Positions 57,639-59,137 of a stretch of 64,000 bases of DNA are shown here, piece by piece. This DNA comes from Eledone cirrhosa (taxonomy: Eukaryota): contig OZ024743.1 of assembly GCA_964016885.1 (NCBI GenBank), positions 71,982,001-72,046,000 of the forward strand, written 5' to 3'. The notes under the pieces were generated by a model. It was not told the origin of the DNA, did no database searches, and saw nothing but the letters and a program-made list of their open reading frames with translations. Position 1 is the first letter of the stretch; each line of letters begins with the position of its first letter. The position numbers and the translations under genes were made by a program.

Positions 57639-57670
<32 letters not shown>

Positions 57671-57672
<2 letters not shown>

Positions 57673-57788
57673 TGAAACAAAATGAAAACGAAATTTCATT
57701 TCTCACTCTTAGTATGGCACTTACCTAAATGTAAGTATGCATGTATACGTACATACATACATGTATACAGACGTACAGTAGCATGCAC

Positions 57789-57819
<31 letters not shown>

Positions 57820-58255
57820 TACATATGCACACAGGCACACATACATATATGCACGTATCAGTTTAGCGGCGCTAACGTCGCTTTGTTCGTTTGTAAACAA
57901 ACTGAACAGCCTGAATTTATGCCATACGGTGTTAAGGCAACCACGTCACCTTTTTGTTCAACACTGACACAGGAACGATGTACTAGTTTCAAGCTTGTTA
58001 GCTATCATCAGCACCGTTTACCCATCTGCCAGATAGTTGAACGTTCGAAAGTATATACTTTCCTTATGAAAATTAACGGCTGAGCAGCCTAATTTGCATA
58101 TTGAGTGAGTTAAATCGGTTAGGCATACCGAAAACGATAAATTGAAACAAAATGAAAACGAAATTTCATTTCTCACTCTTAGTATGGCACTCACTTAAAT
58201 GTAAGTATGCATGTATACGTACATACATATATGTATACAGACGTACAGTAGCATG

Positions 58256-58299
<44 letters not shown>

Positions 58300-58738
58300 T
58301 ACATATGCATACAGGTACACATACATATATGCACGTATCAGTTTAGCGGCGCTAACGTCGCTTTGTTCGTTTGTAAACAAACTGAACAGCCTGAATTTAT
58401 GCCATACGGTGTTAAGGCAACCACGTCACCTTTTTGTTCAACACTGACACAGGAACGATGTACTAGTTTCAAGCTTGTTAGCTATCATCAGCACCGTTTA
58501 CCCATCTGCCAGATAGTTGAACGTTCGAAAGTATATACTTTCCTTATGAAAATTAACGGCTGAGCAGCCTAATTTGCATATTGAGTGAGTTAAATCGGTT
58601 AGGCATACCGAAAACGATAAATTGAAACAAAATGAAAACGAAATTTCATTTCTCACTCTTAGTATGGCACTTACCTAAATGTAAGTATGCATGTATACGT
58701 ACATACATACATGTATACAGACGTACAGTAGCATGCAC

Positions 58739-58771
<33 letters not shown>

Positions 58772-59025
58772 TACATATGCACACAGGCACACATACATAT
58801 ATGCACGTATCAGTTTAGCGGCGCTAACGTCGCTTTGTTCGTTTGTAAACAAACTGAACAGCCTGAATTTATGCCATACGGTGTTAAGGCAACCACGTCA
58901 CCTTTTTGTTCAACACTGACACAGGAACGATGTACTAGTTTCAAGCTTGTTAGCTATCATCAGCACCGTTTACCCATCTGCCAGATAGTTGAACGTTCGA
59001 AAGTATATACTTTCCTTATGAAAAT
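57671..59025 (-). mobile_element. Retrozyme array F1, inverted arm (~2.9 monomers, A-B-A)
   Basis: HHRs at 57974-58018, 58454-58498 and 58926-58970 on the minus strand. Confidence 0.88.
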
Positions 59026-59053
59026 CGGTATGCCTAACCGATTTAACTCACTC

Positions 59054-59078
59054 AATATGCAAATTAGGCTGCTCAGCC
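59054..59078 (+). promoter_or_regulatory. Octamer-containing conserved block (ATGCAAAT at 59057-59064), one per monomer
   Basis: aatatgcaaattaggctgctcagcc; counterpart aatatgcaaatcaggccgatcagtc in F2 (minus strand, ~856-880). Confidence 0.45.
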
Positions 59079-59137
59079 GTTAATTTTCATAAGGAAAGTA
59101 TATACTTTCGAACGTTCAACTATCTGGCAGATGGGTA

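Follow-up and report, generated by a model that had tools for sequence, protein, structure and literature searches.

A two-armed hammerhead retrozyme array in Eledone cirrhosa that was probably inserted in one Penelope-like event from a single RNA template

A 64,000-nt stretch of the 3.0 Gb genome of Eledone cirrhosa (the window; G000:C4:71982001-72046000) contains the beginning of a head-to-head array of a ~478-nt hammerhead retrozyme, an insert of 8,894 nt in total that lies inside (TA)n. The array has two arms, uses each of two fixed 3' ends once, is bordered by (TA)n at both ends and shows microhomology at its junction, a shared haplotype and periodic A>G changes. We propose that it goes back to a single insertion, likely by a Penelope-like reverse transcriptase (RT)/endonuclease, in which both cut (TA)n ends were primed on one two-unit RNA. 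This RNA was probably circular and likely carried adenosine-to-inosine (A-to-I) edits, and both enzymes would have worked on the same molecule. We put the probability of this reading at roughly two in three.

The repeat unit is 468-488 nt long, has a GC content of 0.36 and carries a central TA microsatellite. Two versions of it, X and Y, alternate. The features of the window are as follows.

57637-57669 (no strand): (TA)n target tract of the left flank, common to the adjoining 317-nt element
57671-59025 (minus): long-ended arm of 1,355 nt, composed of Y(58-478), X and Y(1-468), with its 3' end at the family 'long' site (468-472)
59025-59026 (no strand): head-to-head (5'-5') junction with 1-nt microhomology
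59026-64000 (plus): short-ended arm, (X-Y)8, 7,540 nt in total, continuing to G000:C4:72048564, where the 'short' site (413) meets (TA)n
59138-59182 (plus): minimal type I hammerhead motif, core at 59145, predicted cut after 59175
59429-59497 (plus): the first monomer's 'tail', ~60 nt that separate the short end site (404-413) from the long one (468-472)
59442 (plus): A417G, mark of the X unit, with 8 of 9 exact genome-wide matches inside this array
59798-59909 (plus): Y-unit marks A295G, A301G, A379G and A414G at 59798, 59804, 59874 and 59909
56778-57638 (no strand): older 317-nt hammerhead repeat of another family, head-to-head, with a minus arm at 56778-57442 and a plus arm at 57441-57638

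An earlier note on this DNA had described divergent arms meeting at 59025/59026, and the assembly sequence reproduces this together with the arm coordinates. Read in ribozyme sense, the inverted arm runs from monomer position 58 to ...TTTCAAT at position 468, where it meets a single G followed by (TA)16; its end at the (TA)n flank was thus placed correctly at 57671. The main arm opens with CGGTATGCC, and the T at 59025 is compatible with both arms. Between the two arms the stretch TTATCGTTTT is skipped, which amounts to 10 nt, to 9 nt if the microhomology is counted, or to 6 nt if the end is read past a G mismatch to position 472, in agreement with the 9-10 nt given before. The alternating register, described as continuous, indeed runs Y-X-Y and then X-Y-X-Y across the junction. 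Beyond the window, the main arm comprises 16 monomer pieces in all, and its far end, which the note had left to be located and checked for a (TA)n flank, lies at monomer position 413 against (TA)n; TA is thus present at both insert ends.

To place this locus in its family, we surveyed 173 loci, 113 for discovery and 60 for replication. The discovery set consisted of 15 loci from the top genome-search matches, this one included, 58 loci from the end lists of C1 and 40 unpaired ends. Nearly all of the 58 C1 loci had been chosen as long-plus-short pairs, so that the junction classes of the discovery set are biased, whereas 56 of the 60 replication loci were chosen by their long end alone. Throughout the family, arms stop at two fixed sites ~60 nt apart, the 'long' site at 468-472 and the 'short' site at 404-415. 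Exact matches to these ends followed by TA were found genome-wide 899 + 144 + 10 times for the long and 935 times for the short end, while reversed-pattern controls gave 0. The 3' end at 468-472 is thus a fixed family terminus and not a spurious internal priming site; neither a poly(A) end nor a variable internal priming site was seen at the arm ends, both of which are fixed.

The two kinds of end occur together. Among the first 100 ends of each kind listed for C1, a divergent short end lay within 30 kb of 58 of 92 long ends, long-long pairs numbered 0 among the first 100 long ends listed, and the single divergent short-short pair represented two neighbouring insertions. In the discovery set, 86 of 93 junctions (113 loci) joined a long-ended to a short-ended arm; in the replication set, this was the case for 35 of 37 junctions (60 loci), with 0 long-plus-long. 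Taken together, 121 of 130 junctions were long-plus-short, i.e. they carry the tail at one end only. TA repeats abutted 289 of 296 such ends; most loci had been selected by the end-plus-TA motif, and only the opposite ends really test TA as the target. The 5' ends of the arms were scattered, with an overlap of 1-6 nt at 58 of 86 junctions, and arm lengths formed a continuum from ~25 nt to 12.3 kb. Arms of about the length of the tail (49-70 nt) were found for 14 of 163 long but 2 of 133 short arms (p=0.008). The junction of one locus (L098) was missed by the edge filter. Four loci (L118, L123, L126, L210) are solo 'tail' insertions of 54-64 nt, in which no second arm was detected, and three others (L064, L069, L106) contain extra short junction segments from elsewhere in the unit, resembling template switching.

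The survey also bears on whether the inversion is a fold-back or a chimeric assembly artefact. The junction is known here from the assembly sequence, and mirror-like junctions do exist at local palindromes in L071, L095, L133 and, beside an assembly gap, C2_343. However, the arms of the present array share neither their start (position 58 versus 1) nor the fixed site at which they end, the left and right flanks share no similarity, and 121 junctions including its own obey the long-plus-short rule. We consider an artefact exceedingly improbable; a mirror origin was rejected on account of the unrelated flanks and the differing arm starts.

The earlier note took the near-abutment of the two arms as the signature of twin priming as known from LINE-1 (L1). 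There, two nicked ends prime one RNA and the cDNA ends join by microcomplementarity, which yields a 5' inversion whose end is immediately followed by the start of the main segment; the median internal deletion is 14.5 bp (10.1101/2024.08.27.596794; this and all following statements on cited papers refer to the passages covered). The prior for such abutment at a single locus is ~3% (31/478 x 1/2). We scored it as a short arm starting within 15 nt of the long end in the 121 long-plus-short junctions, junctions with other ends, 7 of 93 and 2 of 37, being left out. Discovery junctions showed it in 4 of 86 cases and replication junctions in 2 of 35; the sum of 6 of 121 compares with 7.8 expected by chance. 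Because it is not enriched, abutment is not an L1 twin-priming signature in this family, and the arm end-points at the other arrays are unrelated in this respect, an outcome that the note had named as refuting its reading. At this locus it is probably a coincidence. The short arm may have stopped at a late primer on the long site, although the family data favour none of this.

The reverse geometry, with the long arm starting at the short end, was found at 11 of 86 junctions against 5.6 expected; with long arms >100 nt it was found at 3 of 72, and the excess is due to the tail-only arms. A collision like that of twin priming thus occurs, but between two fixed sites on one unit and not in the geometry flagged at this locus. 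The internal site of the second primer varies in L1, where one arm almost continues the other (10.1101/2024.08.27.596794). Here, in contrast, both sites are fixed and 60 nt apart, the arms overlap in template, and abutment is in excess in tail-only arms only. Mixed units are informative in three two-armed loci: the present one, C2_328 and L115. In each of them, the unit type at the end of one arm matches that at the end of the other (3/3), a weak support for overlap that has to be set against the fair frequency with which such agreement is expected by chance. The arms appear to copy overlapping template and not consecutive stretches as in L1.

An L1-type event would have needed a single multimeric transcript, linear and at least 8.9 kb long, with one primer at the 3' site and a second one upstream, at which the first cDNA stopped. 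Such an event would explain why the short arm starts 6-10 nt past the end of the long arm in continuous register, a gap comparable to L1 internal deletions, and tail-only arms do abut, on a single unit. Yet, besides the lack of enrichment, a linear transcript requires an (XY)9 source, which was not found in the assembly, and independent edits on a linear multimer would not mark every second unit identically. Furthermore, the arms of C2_328 and L115 carry the same marks at equal distance from the 3' end, which indicates template overlap. We regard the L1-type account as very doubtful. In its broad sense, as priming of the two nicked ends on a single RNA, twin priming is still the best reading. 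Of the earlier proposal, what stands is one retrotransposition event from one RNA template, with the concatemer made at insertion; what falls is the abutment as evidence for it.

By sequence, the layout is that of a Penelope inverted-repeat-plus-tail footprint. The published footprint of Penelope-like elements comprises inverted 5'-truncated copies, a tail at one end and (TA)n targets, and endonuclease-bearing elements form partial tandems with a head-to-head inverted 5'-truncated copy and insert into (TA)n or AT-rich targets with microhomology junctions (PMC8557442, PMC3846280). A Penelope-like protein, when purified, cleaves and extends both strands in vitro; the tail is set by its two start points, internal RNA sites next to each other (PMC11167929). 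It showed no strand preference for the start site, whereas each event here takes one site of each kind. The array differs from Penelope-like elements in having no open reading frame (ORF), a tail of ~60 nt instead of 30-40 nt, and multi-kb arms that are homopolymers or periodic multimers of the unit. The head-to-head layout has also been explained by self-priming on an antisense template (PMC3846280).

The genome also holds an autonomous element of this layout. L050:627-7810 (G000:C4:70.70 Mb) is an intact two-armed Penelope-like element with an ORF of 746 aa and a 92-nt tail; it carries a hammerhead motif in each terminal repeat and adjoins a retrozyme array in the same TA-rich region. Atlas neighbours of the 746-aa ORF carry HTH_animal, GIY-YIG and RVT_1 (score 0.95-0.98). 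The element has at least 60 close copies, many with open frames, and in 30 of its loci, 8 of its TA-flanked ends coincided with the short and 7 with the long site. Penelope-like ORFs are among the long ones near the arrays; the two of 700 aa received no name from Pfam but did from Atlas.

It is the haplotypes and marks, and not the abutment, that support one template and one event. Haplotypes were identical between the two arms of one locus in 34 of 51 cases, compared with 384 of 2,517 cross-locus pairs. For the modal microsatellite length, agreement was found in 42 of 65 cases within a locus and in 1,156 of 5,375 across loci. At the present locus, both arms share an X/Y alternation that is nearly private to it. 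Nine of 12 genome-wide matches to the A414G (Y) motif lie inside this array, and the matches to X/Y marks outside it belong to other subfamilies. Searches with the X and Y marker motifs found no other (XY)n array or long source array in the assembly. The matches at C3:124.24 Mb (X marker) and C2:343.93 Mb (Y marker) were rejected as sources; they are from different subfamilies, in which the change arose separately. Every variant in the array other than the X/Y marks is a singleton, which fits one round of copying followed by scattered mutation. Another alternating two-unit array exists at G000:C2:343.93 Mb (L151/L152); its marks are not all A>G, and its junction, which mirrors at a palindrome of 16 nt next to an assembly gap, may be an artefact.

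The nature of the marks points to editing. Relative to the family majority, X carries A417G and Y carries A295G, A301G, A379G and A414G; all five are A>G on the ribozyme strand and recur in every second unit. For a spectrum across loci we excluded monomer positions 309-352, sites near indels, pieces diverged by more than ~3% and variants that were multi-copy in more than two loci (A11G, A70G, C465T). In the discovery set, A>G made up 18 of 40 multi-copy locus-private variants versus 9 of 135 singletons, or 13 of 35 versus 8 of 130 without this locus. Pooled over both sets without this locus, the figures were 20 of 53 versus 18 of 185 (p=6e-6), with a strand bias of 20:4 for A>G over T>C (p=0.0015). 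A 5' G preceded 1 of 20 A>G sites versus 16 of 127 background A, and depletion of 5' G is a signature of ADAR (PMC2873906). A301G, A375G and A70G recur on different subfamily backgrounds, and the genome carries A deaminase domains. An error bias of the RT fits the A>G changes poorly and was set aside, given A>G in only 3 of 65 singletons of young arrays.

Periodicity is not limited to period two. The 19-unit single arm of C3_306 (G000:C3:306764339-306773260, L041/L042) carries A219G/A375G mostly in every third unit, A70G in two of these third units, and a period-2 stretch at its 3' end. An edit belongs to one molecule; the same edits in every second unit of both arms would therefore mean that one two-unit RNA was read many times, i.e. 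that it was a circle. Going by sequence, the marks are likely to have been inosines and the template is likely to have been a circle.

Two RNA molecules from one source locus could instead have fed a two-ended Penelope-type insertion, with the A>G marks being ordinary DNA variants of a source absent from the assembly. One active source would likewise give arms with shared haplotypes, in each of the pairs L120/L240 and L075/L242 A>G variants are shared on one background, and the TA-length difference between X and Y looks like a trait of source DNA. Against this, long-plus-long or short-plus-short pairs would be expected often, but none of the 37 replication junctions was long-plus-long, and DNA variants should match the singleton spectrum (A>G ~10%) and not reach 38% with a strand bias. 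We judge two molecules distinctly unlikely.

Retrozyme arrays have been attributed to local amplification by unequal crossover (10.64898/2026.07.22.740005, Discussion), and local expansion is what that paper assumes for them. Applied to this locus, a short two-armed Penelope-type insertion, already bearing the A>G changes on its first short copy, would have grown later by unequal crossover or slippage with a two-unit offset. Aperiodic shared variants in 6 of 60 long arms agree with such growth. But the non-X/Y variants here are all singletons, shared minority variants are absent from 50 of 60 long arms, and both arms, even the one of 1.4 dimers, already repeat Y; the continuous arm lengths and scattered 5' breakpoints argue in the same direction. 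Growth in place is thus unlikely as the origin of this array. The aperiodic variants nevertheless likely reflect some later duplication, conversion, turnover or template switching.

Under the preferred reading of one insertion from one RNA, the transcript would be cleaved by its hammerheads with one site skipped, or two monomers would be ligated, to give a two-unit circle that is then edited A-to-I. A Penelope-type complex would nick both strands of (TA)n; on one and the same unit, priming would take place at ~472 for one 3' end and at ~410 for the other, with AU-rich microhomology helping. From one end, copying would take ~8 turns of the circle; from the other, 1.4 turns. The trailing enzyme would either stop at the leading primer, leaving tail-only arms, or follow by strand displacement, and the two cDNA ends would anneal by microhomology and be filled in. 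For the family at large, we consider it slightly better than an even bet that retrozyme arrays are born full length in this manner, by a Penelope-type pair sitting on two fixed sites of one RNA circle and rolling from both break ends, with A-to-I edits written into the germline as periodic barcodes of circle size (1, 2 or 3 units).

Several observations weigh against a single insertion from one edited circle. A comparison of monomer and pLTR gave no sequence similarity for the one Penelope-like family tested, that of L050 (30 loci), and 23 of 60 replication loci lacked a second arm within the fetched stretch. The arms differed from each other at 17 of 51 loci. In the present array, the TA length is 14-19 in X but 9-11 in Y, a difference beyond the reach of editing, and one Y lacks A295G. 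The discovery test for A>G was post hoc; replication alone gave 7 of 18 versus 10 of 55 (p=0.11), in the same direction and not significant. Mean pairing at A>G sites was 0.68 versus 0.59 for all A, a slight enrichment; at four of the five sites of this locus the pairing probability was at least 0.93. Six of the ten arms with shared minority variants look aperiodic (C3_283, C4_70, L114, L146, L191, L217). In L191:310-4351, A244G is found in the six 3'-most adjacent units and not in the three 5'-most, which suggests a template switch or later expansion. Finally, only one of nine predicted Xenopus retrozyme dimers cleaved in vitro (10.64898/2026.07.22.740005).

The unit was called a hammerhead on its anatomy, which comprises CUGAUGA...GAAA, a stem I of at least 6 bp and a palindromic stem III of 3 bp; Rfam gave no match at gathering score, Hammerhead_HH9 reaching only 18.5 bits against a cut-off of 52. 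Matches of miRNA-like Rfam families were below cut-off and were dismissed as hairpin and microsatellite noise. Core and stems are present in all 14 units of the window that cover the hammerhead, with one motif per monomer, 11 on the plus and 3 on the minus strand of the window. Without a long ORF, the tandem unit is non-coding and of low GC, and no LTR, PBS or PPT was recognised, with no search aimed at PBS or PPT. The family is dispersed and multi-copy, its motifs numbering ~1,050 for the long and 935 for the short end.

The element is a new family within a known class, the metazoan non-LTR retrozymes, with a known Penelope footprint. Like these, it is a non-coding, low-GC tandem with one type I hammerhead per unit (PMC7229834; 10.64898/2026.07.22.740005), its short stem III resembles that of amphibian motifs functional as dimers, and its multimeric arrays are dispersed in a genome that also holds Penelope-like elements. 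Short-stem-III motifs of other animals cleave weakly as monomers and more strongly as dimers, and circular retrozyme RNAs are documented in other animals (PMC7229834). At 470-488 nt the unit is slightly above the 150-450 bp stated there. The covered passages of both papers do not describe head-to-head two-armed arrays, two fixed ends or editing marks fixed in DNA; the word 'inverted' occurs 0 times in those of PMC7229834, and editing is raised only as a possible cause of RNA heterogeneity (PMC7229834; 10.64898/2026.07.22.740005).

In the open-access literature, supplements of the cited papers excepted, we found no description of the one-of-each-end rule, the shared template or the periodic A>G marks. 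Two open questions are touched: how retrozymes enter the genome, and why Penelope-like elements, whose insertion mechanism recent papers call undefined (PMC8557442, PMC11167929), leave inverted copies with a one-sided tail. About 1,000 young insertions yield countable rules, namely one long and one short end, a shared template, an excess of tail-only arms and periodic A>G. If our reading is true, multi-kb satellite arrays can arise in a single step, RNA edits become heritable as DNA, the arrays provide direct genomic evidence of rolling-circle target-primed reverse transcription, and the Penelope inverted-repeat-plus-tail structure is explained as fixed-site twin priming.

The 317-nt repeat that adjoins the array has the same head-to-head build with a ~30-37-nt tail. 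By our reading of 30 matches (28 distinct), about 12 of its 16 clearly two-armed loci were long-plus-short, and a first look gave 3,421 candidates genome-wide. Elsewhere in the window, a diverged (79-85%) copy of the 478-nt family lies at 25209-25796; its hammerhead, at 25523 (minus), is a variant one. A third family is represented by two identical hammerhead-like motifs at 45703 (minus) and 48130 (plus), which diverge across a long TA/CA-rich tract. Lone hammerhead-like motifs with a long stem II at 41970 (plus) and 22127 (minus) resemble those in the terminal repeats of Penelope-like elements, and a 197-bp unit is present in three tandem copies at 51263-51834.
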